Positions 11,224-23,726 of a DNA stretch of 24,248 nucleotides are shown here, one piece after another. Source of the DNA: a virus (taxonomy: Duplodnaviria; Caudoviricetes); the IMG/VR virus record IMGVR_UViG_3300031848_000045, positions 1-24,248 of that record; one strand, written 5' to 3'. The notes beneath the pieces were generated by a model that made no database searches, had not been told where the DNA came from, and saw only the letters and a list, made by a program, of their open reading frames with translations. Every line of letters begins with the position of its first letter. Within the stretch, counting starts at the first letter, position 1. The translations under genes and the position numbers were made by a program.

Positions 11224-11430
11224 TTAGATTTGTTTAGCTCTAGTTAATACATTGACGGGTTCTTTACCTCGTCCTATTAACAGCTTGTCTACTGCGATAG
11301 CCGCCTCTCGCTCTGTATCAAACTTATTCCTGCCTACACCTTTCATGTTTACGTACCAGCGCTGAGCGCTACTTGTTTTAATACTAGCAACATGTTTGTA
11401 CTCGCTAGGAGCGTAATTCATTTTGTTCAT
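11224..11430 (-). CDS. AP2-like DNA-binding domain protein
   Basis: YKHV...WxV...FDTEREAAIAVD pattern. Confidence 0.6.
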   Translation of the reverse strand: MNKMNYAPSEYKHVASIKTSSAQRWYVNMKGVGRNKFDTEREAAIAVDKLLIGRGKEPVNVLTRAKQI

Positions 11431-11442
11431 CTTAGTCTTGTT

Positions 11443-11535
11443 TTAGTTGTTTAAAAATAGTATCGCCAAATAAAACACCCCAGCTGCCAATATTGAAGCT
11501 ACGCACCATTCAAACAAGTTATTTTTCTTCTTCAT
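11443..11535 (-). CDS. 30-aa single-TM peptide (MKKKNNLFEWCVASILAAGVFYLAILFLNN)
   Basis: Hand translation; start and stop both lie within 21-bp repeats. Confidence 0.6.
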   Translation of the reverse strand: MKKKNNLFEWCVASILAAGVFYLAILFLNN

Positions 11536-11536
11536 C

Positions 11537-11734
11537 TTAGTCTTGTTTTAGTTCTTTGATTCTTTGATTCAATGCTTTTGCAATTTCCTCCACAATAAAA
11601 CCATCATACATACTGTCAATCATATCTATGACATTTTCTAGCTCCTCTACACCTCTTTGTTTAGCATACCTCTCAACTTGTGATTTAAGGTCGCTATCTG
11701 AAATGTCTAAAGTTATCGTTTGTGATTCATTCAT
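11537..11734 (-). CDS. Hypothetical protein ending ELKQD
   Basis: 65 aa; C-terminus encoded by the repeat. Confidence 0.75.
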   Translation of the reverse strand: MNESQTITLDISDSDLKSQVERYAKQRGVEELENVIDMIDSMYDGFIVEEIAKALNQRIKELKQD

Positions 11735-11735
11735 C

Positions 11736-11900
11736 TTAGTATTGTTTTAGTTCGTTAGGGATTTCCATCCATCTAATTACTTCACCTTTCAATGTAGTTT
11801 CCCACATATCTAACCATTCTGTGCCTGTGTAGTAGCACATCTTTATATAACCATTATCCATTCTACACACATAGCTTCCTTCTTTTTTTGGTTGTTCCAT
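11736..11900 (-). CDS. 54-aa DUF551-like protein (MEQPKKEGSYVCR...VIRWMEIPNELKQY)
   Basis: Hand translation; PxxxGxY...W.....VxxWMxIP pattern. Confidence 0.7.
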   Translation of the reverse strand: MEQPKKEGSYVCRMDNGYIKMCYYTGTEWLDMWETTLKGEVIRWMEIPNELKQY

Positions 11901-11944
11901 CTTAGTCTTGTTTTAGTTTATATTCCGTATTCCGATATGCGATA

Positions 11945-16726: not shown

Positions 16727-16984
16727 TTATAGTTTATTATAGTTATTAACATATTCCTTTGATACTAACGAGTAGTTTATGATTAGCGGATTCTCTCGAA
16801 CCTTTACTAATTGTATTCCTACTTGTTTCTTTAACCAACCTTTGAACGCATCCGTTCCTAAGTTGATTATGTTTTGAGGTACGACAGCGTACTTGTTCGT
16901 GAAGATTATCACGTTCTTACCTGTCTTTGAGGTTGTATTTAATACGTTCCTCTTGTTCCATTGCATTACTTTGATTTTTGCCAT
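16727..16984 (-). CDS. Basic hypothetical protein
   Basis: 85 aa, preceded by pseudoknot copy 1. Confidence 0.7.
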   Translation of the reverse strand: MAKIKVMQWNKRNVLNTTSKTGKNVIIFTNKYAVVPQNIINLGTDAFKGWLKKQVGIQLVKVRENPLIINYSLVSKEYVNNYNKL

Positions 16985-16993
16985 AAGCTAGTT

Positions 16994-17026
16994 CTGGGAA
17001 GTTTAACGTCTTTTAACCAGTAAGAC
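16994..17026 (-). promoter_or_regulatory. H-type pseudoknot motif, copy 1
   Basis: GUCUU-A-CUGG-UUAA-AAGAC-GUUAAACUUC-CCAG. Confidence 0.7.
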
Positions 17027-17035
17027 AGTTTATTG

Positions 17036-17290
17036 TTAATAGTATATTTCTCCTGAAAGAACACTTTGCATCCAGTGATACAAAGGGCTAGATGTGTTGT
17101 CGCTAGGCTCGTCAGAGTACCTGATTATAACAGGAGATCTTTCGAGGTTTTTCTCGTGTTGACAGATATAAACATCAACATCAGAGTATTTTATACCCTT
17201 TTTTGTTTGTTTATCACCGTTCTCACTTTGCTCTTTATATGTACCTATAAACGTACATTTATCGCAGTCGTGTGTATATTTTGGTTTCAT
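17036..17290 (-). CDS. Hypothetical protein with HDCxxC motif
   Basis: PxYxHDCDxCxFxG...DVYxC...IxRYSDEP pattern. Confidence 0.8.
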   Translation of the reverse strand: MKPKYTHDCDKCTFIGTYKEQSENGDKQTKKGIKYSDVDVYICQHEKNLERSPVIIRYSDEPSDNTSSPLYHWMQSVLSGEIYY

Positions 17291-17308
17291 AATAGTTTCT
17301 TTTAATAG

Positions 17309-17360
17309 ATTAGTTGCCGTAGGCTATAGTGAATAGCCTAACGAACTCAAGTTCTACAGC
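17309..17360 (-). ncRNA. Three-way-junction motif, copy D
   Basis: GCUGUA/UACGGC, GAAC/GUUC, GGCUAU/AUAGCC, tail AACUAAU. Confidence 0.6.
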
Positions 17361-17530
17361 TTTGCAACGTCTGCTAGGATCTTATCCCAGACAGACATAT
17401 TTCTTTGATGTGTTTTTAATTCTTTTTTCATGCGTTCTACCTTTAGTTGAGTAAAGGTTTTAATGAACGTCTTCTTGTAAGGGTTACTCGATCTAATCGG
17501 TAACATCTTAATTCTTTTTCTTTTTTCCAT
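17354..17530 (-). CDS. Small basic protein, 58 aa (MEKRKRIKMLPIRSSNPYKK...)
   Basis: Hand translation; 2 nt after the upstream stop. Confidence 0.6.
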   Translation of the reverse strand: MEKRKRIKMLPIRSSNPYKKTFIKTFTQLKVERMKKELKTHQRNMSVWDKILADVAKL

Positions 17531-17532
17531 AT

Positions 17533-17805
17533 CTAGTTTACTACCATTGAGGCGTTAGTACTTAGGCATAACGGATACCCTACAGCTAAGAAGGACTGTA
17601 ACTCTTCTATAGTGTTTGTAAGTCCTTGTATGTCATCGTCGATTTTGTGTATATCTTCAATGAGATCACTTAATTGCTGTTCGTTAACGGCAAGAGCACA
17701 TTCATTTTCAATATCTGACTTGTCGTCTTTTAATACTTGAATTAGCATAGTGAAAGCGTTAAGCTTTCCTTCTGCATCGCTGAATCGTTCTGGTGTTTTT
17801 GTCAT
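17533..17805 (-). CDS. Hypothetical coiled-coil protein
   Basis: ORF track 17533-17811; ATG 17805 preferred from pseudoknot spacing. Confidence 0.7.
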   Translation of the reverse strand: MTKTPERFSDAEGKLNAFTMLIQVLKDDKSDIENECALAVNEQQLSDLIEDIHKIDDDIQGLTNTIEELQSFLAVGYPLCLSTNASMVVN

Positions 17806-17814
17806 AGGCATTCT

Positions 17815-17851
17815 CAGGGAAGTTTATTGTCTTTTGTGTAACCTGTAAGAC
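17815..17851 (-). promoter_or_regulatory. H-type pseudoknot motif, copy 2
   Basis: GUCUU-A-CAGG-UUACACAA-AAGAC-AAUAAACUUC-CCUG. Confidence 0.7.
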
Positions 17852-17852
17852 T

Positions 17853-17904
17853 GTTAGTTCCTCTGCATTCAGCGATGAATGTTACGAGCACATGCTCCAG
17901 AGGT
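17853..17904 (-). ncRNA. Three-way-junction motif, copy C
   Basis: CCUCUG/CAGAGG, GAGC/GCUC, CAUUCA/UGAAUG, tail AACUAAC. Confidence 0.65.
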
Positions 17905-17908
17905 ATTG

Positions 17909-18073
17909 TTATTTTGTTAGTTTGTTTAGAAAGTACTCTACTTTCTTATAGTGGAATGCTATAAGTACCTCGTACTTAATCTCTTCCATTTTGGTTGTTG
18001 CGAATTGATGCTTTACAGCATACTTGACAACCTTGTAACCGCTTACGATTACATTGTTTATTATTCGTCTCAT
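17909..18073 (-). CDS. Small basic protein, 54 aa (MRRIINNVIVSGYKVVK...)
   Basis: Hand translation; ATGA overlap with upstream gene. Confidence 0.65.
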   Translation of the reverse strand: MRRIINNVIVSGYKVVKYAVKHQFATTKMEEIKYEVLIAFHYKKVEYFLNKLTK

Positions 18074-18240
18074 AGGCATTCTTTTATTTTTAATTCGTTA
18101 GACAGAAACTTAACCATTGTGTCTGCTTCGTCTTTAGTGAAGTCGTCACCTGGAGATGACTGAATCATCTTCCATACGTTTAATGCTCCTTTAATTGTTT
18201 CTACTGATTGACCTTCTAGTAATTCGCTTGTTAGTGCCAT
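18070..18240 (-). CDS. 56-aa protein paralogous to the N-terminus of 19713-20093
   Basis: Hand translation MALTSELLEGQSVETIKGALNVWKMIQSSPGDDFTKDEADTMVKFLSNELKIKECL. Confidence 0.85.
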   Translation of the reverse strand: MALTSELLEGQSVETIKGALNVWKMIQSSPGDDFTKDEADTMVKFLSNELKIKECL

Positions 18241-18256
18241 TGTTGGTTGTTGTTTA

Positions 18257-18309
18257 GTTAGTTCCTCCTACGTATATCGCTTACGATAAGACCTACGTCT
18301 TTAGGAGGT
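18257..18309 (-). ncRNA. Three-way-junction motif, copy B
   Basis: CCUCCUA/UAGGAGG, AAGAC-GUAG-GUCUU, CGUA/UACG, tail AACUAAC. Confidence 0.65.
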
Positions 18310-18313
18310 GGTG

Positions 18314-18592
18314 TTAGTTGCTACTTTTTAATATGTACTCCATTTCTTTTTCTATTAAGTTAACTGTTTCCATATCTGTATGAGTGTAAGTTCTCTCTAT
18401 AGATGTGTCGTCCATTTCTCCGTATTCAGAGAATGCACTAATTCTTACTCCTCCAATCACGACTTTTACTACGTAGTAGTCAGTTTGAAGTAATACATGA
18501 GCCATCCCTGAGATAAATCCTCTTTGAGTATTATACACAGAGTATCCAGTGAAGTCTCCGTTAAGTAATGTGTTGATTCTATATGTAATCAT
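18314..18592 (-). CDS. Hypothetical protein
   Basis: 92 aa, preceded by pseudoknot copy 3. Confidence 0.75.
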   Translation of the reverse strand: MITYRINTLLNGDFTGYSVYNTQRGFISGMAHVLLQTDYYVVKVVIGGVRISAFSEYGEMDDTSIERTYTHTDMETVNLIEKEMEYILKSSN

Positions 18593-18600
18593 AACGAATG

Positions 18601-18638
18601 CAGGTAAGTTTAACGTCTTTTAGTAAAACCTGTAAGAC
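18601..18638 (-). promoter_or_regulatory. H-type pseudoknot motif, copy 3
   Basis: GUCUU-A-CAGG-UUUUACUAA-AAGAC-GUUAAACUUA-CCUG. Confidence 0.7.
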
Positions 18639-19155: not shown

Positions 19156-19189
19156 AATGATTTACTTTAATTGTTTGTAACGTTTTGAC

Positions 19190-19412
19190 GAGCCGCAAAT
19201 TCTTTGCGATACTTTTACTATATTTGTCATCCTACGATTTGTAGACGACTTGCATAGGAATGTGCTTGGATCAGATACTCTGCTCCATACGACATAGCGC
19301 CGTTGCACTTTACAACTTTCTGGCTGCCCAACTGCATACTAATCGTAGTGACTAGTACACAGTGAGCACTCAGAATTTAAAGTTGTTGATGGCAGCCCTA
19401 CTTGTCTGCCAG
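19190..19412 (-). ncRNA. Large structured intergenic RNA candidate
   Basis: Five consecutive folded elements including a ~75-nt hairpin with several G-U pairs. Confidence 0.55.
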
Positions 19413-19421
19413 CATAATTGA

Positions 19422-19616
19422 TTACGCTTCTGTCTCTACAAGACACAGTATAAGGATAGTCATCACACTACTTGTGTAGACTGCTGCTTTACGAGCGTCT
19501 CGCCAAGCCTCGGACATAGAGTATCCGAATTCCATTTCTGGATCGGTAGCTACAACTCCTTTGTTTAACGCTTTTTCTGCCATTCTTTTCATTTGTTCTT
19601 CGGTAGGATTTACCAT
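19422..19616 (-). CDS. Hypothetical protein, 64 aa, hydrophobic C-terminus
   Basis: Start moved to ATG 19616 (MVNPTEEQ). Confidence 0.65.
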   Translation of the reverse strand: MVNPTEEQMKRMAEKALNKGVVATDPEMEFGYSMSEAWRDARKAAVYTSSVMTILILCLVETEA

Positions 19617-19653
19617 AATAGTTAGAACACTGAGGTAGTTCAAGCTCCATTTA

Positions 19654-19706
19654 GTTAGTTCCTCTTTAGTGTAGTGAACACGGTAAGACCTACGTCTTCA
19701 AGAGGT
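19654..19706 (-). ncRNA. Three-way-junction motif, copy A
   Basis: CCUCUU/AAGAGG, AAGAC-GUAG-GUCUU, GUGU-UCACU-ACAC, tail AACUAAC. Confidence 0.65.
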
Positions 19707-20093: not shown

Positions 20094-20110
20094 AATGAAT
20101 GATGTGTTGT

Positions 20111-20194
20111 TATACTAAATGATTGTACTGCTTTGACGGGTAGATTCGAACGTTGTTCTCAACCGCACCGTTTTCTTAACAGTACTATAGTATA
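20111..20194 (-). other. Long imperfect hairpin in 5' leader
   Basis: UAUACUA/UAGUAUA, GUACUG/CAGUAC, ACGG/CCGU, GAAC/GUUC nested pairings. Confidence 0.6.
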
Positions 20195-20270
20195 GGTTAT
20201 GTGACGTTAGTAGCCACTTTTGAATGAATGAGAGACAGATTAGAGTGCATCGCTCCCTTGCACTTGGGTA

Positions 20271-20567
20271 TTAATCTTTAGCTATTGCTACTACTATGGT
20301 AGCTATTACACCAAGAGAGACCATTAATGATCCTCCTTTGATTACTTTTATAGCGTTATCGGTACGGACTTGCGTCATACCTCTTTCTTCGCATTTAGTT
20401 TCGTGCTCTTGTGCACGCTTGATAGTCTTGTTATTTTTCTCCGTTAGCTTGGTACCCTCGGCTACCTTCTTGGCGATAGAGTTTAGTTGCATAGAGATAC
20501 AGATCCCTGATGCTGTTGTTGGTACGTCTTTGGTTGCGGTAAGTAATGTTGAGAAGAATGTATTCAT
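20271..20567 (-). CDS. First gene of the leftward block; C-terminal TM helix
   Basis: 98 aa; tail SLMVSLGVIATIVVAIA. Confidence 0.7.
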   Translation of the reverse strand: MNTFFSTLLTATKDVPTTASGICISMQLNSIAKKVAEGTKLTEKNNKTIKRAQEHETKCEERGMTQVRTDNAIKVIKGGSLMVSLGVIATIVVAIAKD

Positions 20568-20723
20568 AATGCTCCCACACTTTGGTAGTGGGAATCTCCG
20601 TATTAGTTATGCACGTTGAAATCAACTTGCTTTTGATAGAACAGGTGGCGTAGCCTAAAAGATTGGGTTGCACACGGGGTGTACAGGAGAGGGCATCACA
20701 CATTCACATTTAAAAAAAAAGTT

Positions 20724-20731
20724 TATATTTG
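20724..20731 (+). promoter_or_regulatory. -7 promoter element TATATTTG for the rightward (packaging) operon
   Basis: Exact TAnnTTTG 26 nt before ATG 20758, preceded by an A9 tract; no clear -33 TTG. Confidence 0.6.
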
Positions 20732-21361: not shown

Positions 21362-21897
21362 TGTATCTACTCAAACTAAAGAAAAAAGGGGATAGTGTGA
21401 TAGCTGAAGACAATGGTCTATTGGCTGTACCAGAATTCCATAAGTTATTAAAGGAAAAGAAGTTGGGCGAGAAGGCTATGCGTTATGTAGCATTGAGTCA
21501 GGACTACGATTCTCCATATAGGTACTTGAATGAGCGAGATCGGAATAGGCAAATCTGCACGGACTTAACAGGGAAGCCTGAATGGGCTGACACTAAACAT
21601 CCTTTAATGGTGGCGGCAATTAAGAAGTATGGAGAACTACAAAGGGATCCTTTAGATGACCAGCTCGGAGCGTTCAACAGGAAGATCGATCAATACACTA
21701 CACTTATAGATAACTGGTTTTTGGATCAGGAAACTGCTGAAGACTTACAGAAGGTAATGATCGGTATTGAAAAACTATTAGGTACTCGTACTGTTTTGCT
21801 GGAGGCTATTGAGCGTCGTGGTGAACGGAAGGTAATTAGTGGTGAACAGAAACTAAGCTTCCTTGAGAATAGAGCTGCTAGACTAAAAGATTCATAA
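21361..21897 (+). CDS. Helical protein upstream of TerL, candidate terminase small subunit
   Basis: Translationally coupled to TerL; DYDSPY motif and coiled-coil C-terminal half. Function inferred from position only. Confidence 0.5.
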   Translation: MYLLKLKKKGDSVIAEDNGLLAVPEFHKLLKEKKLGEKAMRYVALSQDYDSPYRYLNERDRNRQICTDLTGKPEWADTKHPLMVAAIKKYGELQRDPLDDQLGAFNRKIDQYTTLIDNWFLDQETAEDLQKVMIGIEKLLGTRTVLLEAIERRGERKVISGEQKLSFLENRAARLKDS

Positions 21898-23726
21898 TGG
21901 CTGGTAGATTCGACGTACAACAATACAGACCTATACCTAATCACGGACACCCCAAACTCGACACCGATAGTTTAATCTATCAAGACTATTGGGAGGAGGA
22001 GATGAACCGCTGCATTAATGGCTATAAACCTATTGGCGGTGCGTGGATACCTGGGAACTACTACTGGTATCTTAACTACTATATGATATTAGGTAACGAC
22101 GGTACAGACGGGAATCGAAAGACTCTTATCTATCCGTGGTATAGAGATATGGATCTTGAATACTTTATGCTATTCGACACCTGCCGTAGAGAAGGTAAAG
22201 GAATGATCGTAATTAAAGCCCGTGATAAAGGTTTTAGTTATATGAACTCTGGATTAGTTGCTCATGAATTCACATTCTTTCCGCATTCCGAGGTCGGAAT
22301 TGCGGCTGGACTAGGGGTTACTGCGAATTCATTTTTTGATAAGGTTAAGAAGGGGCTGATGAACCAACATCCTAATTTCAGGCATGGTTGGTTAAAGGAT
22401 ACTAAGGATACATTAAGGGCAGGTTATAAGGAGAAGAACTCTGAAGGTCGGTGGGATATAAGTGGTTATCAATCTGTGATACACTGTAGAACCATGGATG
22501 ATCCAGAAGTTTATAAAGGAGAGCGTTTATCTATAATGATTTTTGAGGAGGCTGGTGAATTCAAGAGATTGAAGAACGCCTACATGTCTTCCAAGGCTTG
22601 CTTCATGGATGGATCTAAGCAGTATGGAGTTCCTGTGGTCGGTGGAACAGGTGGGGATATAGATTCTGCCTCTGCCGATTTTATGGATATGTATTATAAT
22701 GCTGATGCGTTTAATCTTATTCCTATGTTTATTCCTGCGTCTGTTGCATTACACGGATTCTTTAGTCCTGTTACTGGAGTAGACGACGAACCAGCGGCTC
22801 GTAAATTCATTGAAGACGCTAGAGAAGATATACTAAATGGTGGTGGTGATAGTAAGGCGTATAATTTACATATACAAAATTACCCACTAACCATACAGGA
22901 GGCGTTCTTAAAGACTAAAGGATCGAGGTTTGACATTGCGTTGCTTAATCAACAAAGAGGCCGTGTGCAAGACCTGAAGGATCCTGAGCAGCACTTAACG
23001 ACTGGTCATCTTGATTGGGTAATAGGAGATAAAGGATTAACTCAAGAAGTTAAGTTCACTCCTCATCCTCACGGGCCATATAAAATACTACACCACCCTA
23101 AACCTCATTTAACTGGATTAGACATAGGTGGTATTGATAGTTATGATCAGGATCAGGCTGGTGCGGCACCATCTTTGGGTTGTGCTATGATATTCCGTAG
23201 AATAGAGAATACAAACGTACCATATAGGCTTCCTGTTGCAGAATATACAGATAGACCTGAAACTGCTGACATGTTTTTCGAAGGATGTCTGAAATTAGCT
23301 GTATATTACAACGCACAAATGCTGGTGGAGTATACTAAGATTGGTATACTAGATTACTTCCTTAGAAATAAGGCTCAGAGGTACTTGAAGACCAAACCTC
23401 GTAGTGCACACTCGCCTGGAACTAAGACGAGAAACAACTACGGTGTTCACATGAATAAGCAAATTAAGTCATATATGGAGTCATTGATGTACGATTACAT
23501 AAAGGAAAAGGCAGACGATATATGGTTTATAGACCTGCTAGACGAGTTATGTGACTGGGGTTCAAGGAATACGGATAGGGCGATTGCATTCGGTTTGTGT
23601 CTTATACATGAAAATGATAACTTTGCGATTGAAGTGAAGAATAGAGAAACTGAGTCCATCAAAGAAAGTGGATTCTCTTATTACAAAAACGATAGTAATG
23701 GTACGCCAGTAAAACATAATAGATAA
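21897..23726 (+). CDS. terL: Terminase large subunit, crAss-like
   Basis: YWYLNY, Walker A KARDKGFSY, Walker B IFEEAG, GGTGG, nuclease GIDSYDQD and terminal DRAIA. Confidence 0.93.
   Translation: MAGRFDVQQYRPIPNHGHPKLDTDSLIYQDYWEEEMNRCINGYKPIGGAWIPGNYYWYLNYYMILGNDGTDGNRKTLIYPWYRDMDLEYFMLFDTCRREGKGMIVIKARDKGFSYMNSGLVAHEFTFFPHSEVGIAAGLGVTANSFFDKVKKGLMNQHPNFRHGWLKDTKDTLRAGYKEKNSEGRWDISGYQSVIHCRTMDDPEVYKGERLSIMIFEEAGEFKRLKNAYMSSKACFMDGSKQYGVPVVGGTGGDIDSASADFMDMYYNADAFNLIPMFIPASVALHGFFSPVTGVDDEPAARKFIEDAREDILNGGGDSKAYNLHIQNYPLTIQEAFLKTKGSRFDIALLNQQRGRVQDLKDPEQHLTTGHLDWVIGDKGLTQEVKFTPHPHGPYKILHHPKPHLTGLDIGGIDSYDQDQAGAAPSLGCAMIFRRIENTNVPYRLPVAEYTDRPETADMFFEGCLKLAVYYNAQMLVEYTKIGILDYFLRNKAQRYLKTKPRSAHSPGTKTRNNYGVHMNKQIKSYMESLMYDYIKEKADDIWFIDLLDELCDWGSRNTDRAIAFGLCLIHENDNFAIEVKNRETESIKESGFSYYKNDSNGTPVKHNR

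Follow-up and report, generated by a model that had tools for sequence, protein, structure and literature searches.

Several pseudoknots in messenger RNA (mRNA) leaders that are linked to translation have been described. The leader pseudoknot of Escherichia coli tisB is needed for binding of the 30S subunit and of ribosomal protein S1 and acts positively on translation (PMC7708055). The protein bS1 has a high affinity for pseudoknots, and the rpsO (uS15) operators of E. coli and mycobacteria carry, in the initiation region, a pseudoknot that comes into contact with the 30S subunit (PMC10931766). In the phages T4, T2 and RB69, the gene 32 operator is a compact two-stem pseudoknot in a phage mRNA leader, which lies 67 nucleotides (nt) upstream with an unstructured tract in between (PMC3014915). 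T4-type phages also carry PeSL cassettes, repeated intergenic modules before small variable genes that are exchanged between loci (PMC2839356). Here, we analysed a stretch of 24,248 nt from the virus record IMGVR_UViG_3300031848_000045 (positions 1 to 24,248, hereafter the window), in which a putative H-type pseudoknot is repeated shortly before start codons. This element would be a further form of the translation-linked leader pseudoknot, a known kind, and is apparently uncatalogued.

By analogy, the element most likely works like the tisB leader pseudoknot. The tisB standby site is situated about 100 nt from a sequestered Shine-Dalgarno (SD)-type site (PMC7708055), whereas the element abuts a start without SD sequence and is repeated before unrelated genes; the sequence relation between the two was compared through Rfam only. 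The gene 32 operator serves one gene from a distance of 67 nt and is bound by that gene's own product, a single-stranded DNA-binding protein (PMC3014915), while the element lies 8-10 nt before the start codons of five protein groups. The rpsO operators require a U-G/C-G motif and SD-led host genes (PMC10931766), whereas neither stem of the element contains a G.U pair in any of 24 distinct copies. PeSL cassettes combine a sigma-70 promoter, a terminator-like stem-loop and an SD sequence (PMC2839356); the element has no promoter box or SD sequence and its structure is locked to the AUG.

The window contains three copies of the element, all on the minus strand. Copy A (16994..17026) consists of stem 1 GUCUU/AAGAC, a single A as loop 1, stem 2 CUGG/CCAG, a loop 2 of 4 nt and a loop 3 of 10 nt, and ends 9 nt before the AUG at 16984. 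Copy B (17815..17851) has the stem 2 CAGG/CCUG with a loop 2 of 8 nt and lies 9 nt before the AUG at 17805, and copy C (18601..18638) has the same stem 2, a loop 2 of 9 nt and a distance of 8 nt to the AUG at 18592. Coordinates, stems, loop-2 lengths and AUG distances are all as reported in a first-pass annotation of the sequence. The copies are single and dispersed, neighbours being 821 and 786 nt apart. A pattern that left stem 2 free matched the window three times and had no match in each of 100 dinucleotide shuffles. A sequence-blind scan of the window for H-type folds, in contrast, gave 15 hits. Topology alone is thus common by chance, and the case for the three copies rests on their shared sequence, recurrence and position. 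Copy B is followed by a second in-frame AUG at 17811, 3 nt past the knot; copy A has a UAG at this position, so that the distal AUG alone is common to all copies.

We then determined how far the element extends beyond the window. The same pattern was found in 62 stretches of IMG/VR, and full stem-2 pairing together with a gene 8-9 nt behind occurred only in related phages. Among 80 loci fetched by their terminase, a selection that is blind to the element, 15 contained the gene behind copy A (hereafter the anchor gene), and all 15 had the element directly upstream of it, although several of these loci are near-duplicates and two match the window. A further 31 metagenome loci were fetched by the anchor protein and carried either the element (23) or a plain A-rich leader (8). 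Across 94 loci of the clade, we counted 24 distinct copies, and the proteins encoded behind them fall into five unrelated groups with 15, 4, 3, 1 and 1 members. As this count used a fixed stem-1 pattern, the evidence that stem 1 does not vary comes from the two gene-anchored sets and from three looser searches for variants. With three stem-1 pairs left free (46 of 64 parts covered), at least 81 distinct matches were obtained, and among the matches listed complete pairing of both stems was limited to four copies, all from the clade. When stem 1 was left entirely free and the AUG fixed at 9 nt, 13 loci were found, of which 11 belong to the clade and two lack stem 1, and no variant was found in the clade loci when one substitution per strand was allowed. 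The first-pass annotation had proposed a covariance-model search. Such a model, built from these very copies and run over 98 sources (1.05 Mb), gave 44 matches of at least 56.8 bits, all of them inside the clade, while the next best match scored 23.6 bits. In the data searched, the element is confined to one phage clade with a crAss-like terminase.

The position of the element is fixed on one side. In 35 of 35 distinct contexts the knot ends 8-10 nt before the AUG (by distinct copy, 8 nt in six, 9 nt in 14 and 10 nt in four), whereas the gap from the upstream stop codon ranges from 8 to 71 nt in 34 contexts, with no stop found in the remaining one. This combination of fixed 3' and loose 5' spacing ties the element to the downstream start, which supports the earlier view of a start-codon-linked mRNA element in a host that does not use SD sequences. 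All copies are in sense orientation, and an A/U-rich linker precedes the element in every context.

Two crossing helices, the mark of an H-type pseudoknot, can be drawn in all members, with 98.6% of 216 alignment cells paired in both helices of the 24 copies compared to 35-56% in slid registers. Loop 1 is a single A in all 24 copies. Loop 2 measures 4-10 nt, begins with UU and ends with A in every copy, and the arms of stem 1 are spaced 9 to 15 nt apart. The linker that the first-pass annotation described as a constant 10 nt with UAAACUU, here loop 3, is indeed 10 nt long in 24 of 24 copies; its sequence is of two types, an ACUU-type (14 copies) and an ACUAAU-type (10). A loop 3 of fixed length that contains A, combined with a free loop 2, is expected of an H-type knot. 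Nested-fold predictions of the 24 copies revealed no conserved rival fold that would sequester the AUG. Eight of the nine pairs, namely all of stem 1 and three pairs of stem 2, never vary. Stem 1 therefore gives no covariation signal, and the claim that stem 2 covaries holds for a single pair, which is A-U in 16 copies, U-A in five and a U.U mismatch in three, with A.A not seen. Taken as a reading of aligned sequences, an H-type pseudoknot is plausible, not proven, and the invariance of the remaining letters points to recognition of either the sequence or a tertiary shape.

The terminase large subunit of the window (21897-23726; PHROG 6681, E 5e-95) has its closest matches in annotated phages among crAss-like phages (27-30% identity), and its matches in 209 records are, by name, associated with Flavobacterium (97), Bacteroides (32) and Cellulophaga (10). 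Among 48 element-free starts chosen from the open reading frame list of the window, an SD-like run of at least four letters was present once, A at -3 in 32 and A at -12 in 39 cases. Upstream adenines at positions of the -3/-12 type are known determinants of initiation in Bacteroidia and Flavobacterium johnsoniae (PMC7797042, PMC13000457). Based on the names of the terminase relatives and on SD-less starts with F. johnsoniae-type adenines, the host is likely a member of the SD-less Bacteroidota. In the window, all three genes behind the element show C at -12 and none of them has A at -3, and C occupies -3 in 20 of the 24 distinct copies. The 3' strand of stem 2 spans about -9 to -14, in place of the adenines at -12/-13. 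In F. johnsoniae, SD pairing at the one SD-led gene, rpsU, includes the mutated positions -11, -12 and -15, and the anti-SD remains sequestered on SD-less mRNA (PMC13000457). The 3' strand of stem 2 overlaps these rpsU positions.

The element is an interchangeable leader module, a point that had been missed before. One element-bearing allele of the anchor gene (L349) and three alleles without element (L350, L352, L354) are near-identical on either side of the leader: the shared sequence runs as far as an ACUAA linker and resumes 9 nt before the AUG, and what lies in between is the knot in the former and a short A-rich tract in the latter. In a tree of 25 anchor-gene alleles, which omits six of the 31 loci (partial, offset or duplicate) and in which two long branches join near the root, the eight element-less alleles form one tight group with L349, and the switch between element and plain leader can thus be regarded as one event. 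The U.U form of stem 2 appears on three separate branches of this tree, which suggests, as far as sequences can tell, that leaders move between genes. Leader states are scattered across the tree, and homologues take different leaders. Homologues of the gene behind copy B (17533..17805, minus strand; an orphan protein of 90 amino acids) carry the element in L331, L337 and L344 (in the CUGG/CCAG form, at 10 nt), a plain A-rich leader in L304 and an unrelated module, module 2 (see below), in L334. Homologues of the gene behind copy C (18314..18592, minus strand; an orphan protein of 92 amino acids) in L337 and L344 share 48-51% identity and keep the element at 8 nt. Separately, a gene at 18073 has the 9-nt spacer of copy B (18073-18082, minus strand) without a knot and overlaps the end of the upstream gene; this is a possible scar of module exchange.

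A weaker fourth copy had been suspected before the ATG at 19616. This feature (19625..19648, minus strand) is real and conserved with its GAAC/GUUC stem, but it is not the element, and the GAG/CUC helix proposed for it is unsupported, with no double change and one pair broken in three of 14 versions. Instead, it belongs to what we call module 2, which consists of GGAG, 2-4 nt, a covarying stem of 4-5 base pairs (bp) and a loop UACCNNAGU, and it ends 8 nt before the AUG. The clade contains 14 versions with 11-13 nt between the end of the loop and the AUG, and the GAAC/GUUC stem shows covariation at all four pairs with 20 double changes, a level reached by none of 500 shuffles. Homologues of the gene at 19616 carry module 2 or plain leaders. 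A second window copy, missed earlier, is located at 20574..20599 (minus strand) with the stem CCCAC/GUGGG, 6 nt before the AUG at 20567. Judged by its pairing pattern and by invariant letters of its own (GGAG and UACCNNAGU), module 2 is an unrelated family with a different fold at a similar distance to the AUG. Two unrelated folds at the same distance point to a constraint that is set by the ribosome.

Comparison with Rfam, which the first-pass annotation had suggested, assigned the element to no family: the window gave three weak, unrelated hits at E values up to 10, none of them at the element, and nine related loci gave tRNAs only at the gathering level. DUF805b (RF02914) and DUF805 (RF03081) are small candidate cis-regulatory RNAs like the element, and neither model matched at the element. 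DUF805b had no match in the genome of the window at E values up to 10 (gathering threshold 35.6 bits), and the best DUF805 match reached 15.5 of the 51.1 bits needed and was situated at other places, in five records. In the preQ1-I riboswitch, the ligand is contacted by a conserved C that closes loop 2 and by a U in loop 1. The element has no Rfam match to it, and in all 24 copies loop 1 is a single A and the last letter of loop 2 is A. The pistol ribozyme combines P1 and a pseudoknot with two further stems around the cleavage site; there was no Rfam match to it either, and in the element loop 3 leads directly to stem 2, with the AUG 8-10 nt further on, which leaves no room for more stems. Type III antitoxin RNAs (ToxI, CptI, TenpI) form an array of head-to-tail repeats upstream of a toxin gene. 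The single, dispersed copies of the window do not form such an array, and no Pfam or PHROG match to a ToxN-type RNase was found among the three downstream proteins. No description of the element was found in the literature, where the alignments of PMC10690425 (files 1, 2 and 4) and the supplement of PMC5737381, a paper on 224 motifs, lay outside the search and could hold it. Six supplementary files of PMC10690425, a screen with 10,006 candidate viral RNAs, contained none of six core words of 10-13 nt, and the accessible part of the preprint 10.64898/2026.09.22.753630 does not treat the element.

Taken together, we consider the chances about evenly balanced that the element is a cis-acting, swappable leader pseudoknot that is bound by the host 30S subunit and promotes initiation in place of an A-rich leader. 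The RNA would fold as drawn, and its 3' end, 8-10 nt before the AUG, would direct initiation at a measured distance. Its ribosomal partner might be bS1 or the platform region where the SD helix would lie, the effect on initiation would be positive, and recombination within the A-rich linkers that the copies share would have carried them from gene to gene. A conserved host partner fits better than autoregulation by the anchor protein, because the RNA is invariant while the most distant members of the protein family fall to 28-33% identity. It may further be speculated that phages of Bacteroidota evolved structured ribosome-binding sites in the form of small tertiary folds that dock at the position of the SD-anti-SD helix and set the start by distance, and that this clade shuffles two folds and A-rich leaders to set the output of each early gene; we regard this wider proposal as possible yet rather doubtful.

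A number of observations weigh against a 30S-bound knot that promotes initiation. The covariation rests on the one stem-2 pair that is mismatched in three of 24 copies, and this pair may reflect a single event spread by module exchange. In 12 of the 24 copies, a second in-frame AUG follows 3 nt behind the knot, which makes the start in use uncertain there. The determinants of initiation in F. johnsoniae include low secondary structure near the start (PMC7797042, PMC13000457), and start-adjacent structures in E. coli generally cost binding energy (PMC3936740). As start-proximal structure is usually inhibitory, a knot at -9 could equally dampen translation. Before the anchor gene the element is dispensable in one lineage (eight of 31 loci), and L349, the one sister allele with the element, also has A at -3. 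Furthermore, the sister group (64-66% terminase identity) gave no instance of the element in 39 loci, many of which are short upstream of the terminase; in ten longer ones, with 6-10 kb of sequence on that side, no such knot lay 7-11 nt before an AUG. The 15 pattern matches in GTDB genomes all lacked stem 2. The element is therefore not a general host feature.

The first-pass annotation had listed a translation enhancer, an operator, a nuclease block and a ligand-binding fold as possible functions. Of this list, the link to the start codon stands; enhancer and operator are not separated directly, and the other two are less favoured. An operator, i.e. a site at which a phage protein, possibly the anchor protein, would switch early genes off as a set, in the way gp32 acts on its own leader, is unlikely but survives best among the alternatives. 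The invariant letters would suit recognition by a protein, the knot lies within the region that a 30S subunit would occupy, and the leaders lack the favourable adenines. The gene 32 pseudoknot offers a phage precedent, although it is located 67 nt upstream behind an unstructured tract, unlike the element (PMC3014915). The anchor protein is basic and gave a confident structural model (predicted local distance difference test, pLDDT, 87.9), whose weak fold matches are mostly OB folds (Z 3.3-4.3; the best with Z 4.3 and a root-mean-square deviation of 2.7 over 65 residues). These matches are below the chance range of the tool and, on the strength of the model, would neither support nor exclude RNA binding. 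Also against this reading, identity within the anchor protein family drops to about 30% although the RNA does not vary, and eight alleles keep the protein without the element.

A role in mRNA protection or processing, in which the knot would mark or shield an RNA end cut in the A-rich linker as near to the AUG as the ribosome allows, has a low probability. Compact knots can resist nucleases, an A/U-rich linker is present upstream in every context, and other structured modules occupy the same intergenic spaces. Yet protection would not need a spacing of 8-10 nt, the loose side is the 5' side (8-71 nt), and the replacement of the A-rich initiation region itself would be unexpected.

We consider it improbable that the element acts at the DNA level. 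It would then serve as a site of recombination, as a promoter for a phage polymerase or as a DNA-binding site, and its inverted repeats would only mimic an RNA knot. Stem 1 is an invariant inverted repeat and the modules are evidently exchanged between genes, as are the PeSL cassettes of T4-type phages (PMC2839356). However, the two arms of stem 1 lie 9 to 15 nt apart depending on the copy, a second pairing that crosses this stem covaries, and all copies are sense-oriented and locked to the AUG. The box TAnnTTTG is a promoter box of Bacteroidota. It was absent from the 100 nt upstream in 37 contexts, which leaves room for a phage-specific promoter. No phage RNA polymerase was recognised in a 96%-complete relative (G001); its protein of 3916 amino acids (L191:7486-19233, minus strand) had no PHROG or PDB-sequence match and may be a virion RNA polymerase or another ejected protein.

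More improbable still is a ligand-sensing, riboswitch-like small H-type RNA that would tune access to the start codon. The outline resembles preQ1-I, with a stem 1 of 5 bp, a short loop 1, a loop 2 of variable length and an A-rich loop 3, and many unpaired letters are invariant. The lack of both an Rfam match and a conserved AUG-sequestering fold in the nested predictions speaks against it, as do the downstream genes, which are unrelated orphans without a metabolic theme. Finally, a recoding signal that causes read-through, frameshifting or coupling of ribosomes from the upstream gene is very improbable. The knot does start 8-9 nt past the stop codon in six of 34 contexts, but the gap ranges from 8 to 71 nt, all three frame offsets to the upstream gene occur (in 12, 14 and 8 contexts), and in 26 of 35 contexts an in-frame stop is present within the element or the spacer. 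These features speak against a coded peptide as well as against read-through and frameshifting.

Upstream adenines and low structure account only in part for the way in which ribosomes that do not recognise SD sequences choose and rank their starts (PMC7797042, PMC13000457). An invariant fold in the place of the absent SD helix would represent a new kind of initiation determinant. Thanks to the fixed spacing, the second fold and the natural allele pair, in which the same gene and flanks occur once with the element and once with a plain leader, this question can be tested directly. If the effect is positive, the element would be a portable expression part for Bacteroidota. Should it be an operator instead, the genes behind it form a regulon of early genes in a phage clade that is unstudied. 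The narrow range and the thin covariation limit the weight of the finding.

The left end of the window contains replication genes, and its minus strand a long series of small orphan genes. The genes that carry the element are small early phage genes, unrelated orphans without a metabolic theme. The anchor gene (16727..16984, minus strand) encodes an orphan protein of 85 amino acids from a family of 32 proteins, to which Pfam, PHROG, PDB-sequence, Foldseek and Atlas searches gave no assignment. At 20724-20731 (plus strand), where the early and late gene blocks diverge, the window has a TAnnTTTG box that is kept in L186 and L188.

Look-alikes of the element in tRNA clusters of unrelated phages (L008, L283/L284, L291, L297) were set aside, as no AUG-led gene follows at the right distance. 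Their core is conserved at L284:6001-6038 (minus strand), L291:3746-3783 and L297:6001-6038, within tRNA clusters or close to them. In these cases loop 2 is longer and structured, and no start codon follows. The look-alike in L283 had no Rfam match. This is possibly a separate non-coding RNA.

Other structured or repeated features occupy intergenic spaces of the window, all on the minus strand. Predicted three-way-junction modules at 19661-19705, 18264-18308 and 17860-17903 are closed by CCUCY/RGAGG and followed by ACUAAC, and many relatives have variants; on the downstream side of these modules lies the element, module 2 or a plain leader. The last of them ends 8 nt upstream of copy B, and related modules precede the element in several relatives. 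A hairpin related to these modules is located near 17313-17357. A block of 220-254 nt (19183-19403; 27 distinct versions across the clade, e.g. at L186:13699-13951 and L187:6652-6872) has no Rfam match. Its 24 aligned versions contain a 7-bp and a crossing 8-bp helix with one compensatory pair each and a nested hairpin with four G.U-type changes (99.8% of cells paired), which makes the block a candidate pseudoknotted non-coding RNA. A long structured intergenic region (20094-20270) has a predicted energy of -33.9 kcal/mol, and parts of it are common to L187 and L188. At 11413-11922, four copies of a 25-40 nt leader that ends in AAGACUAAG-AUG precede small genes with starts at 11900, 11734 and 11430 and an unlisted one near 11535; this is another repeated leader cassette, an unstructured one.

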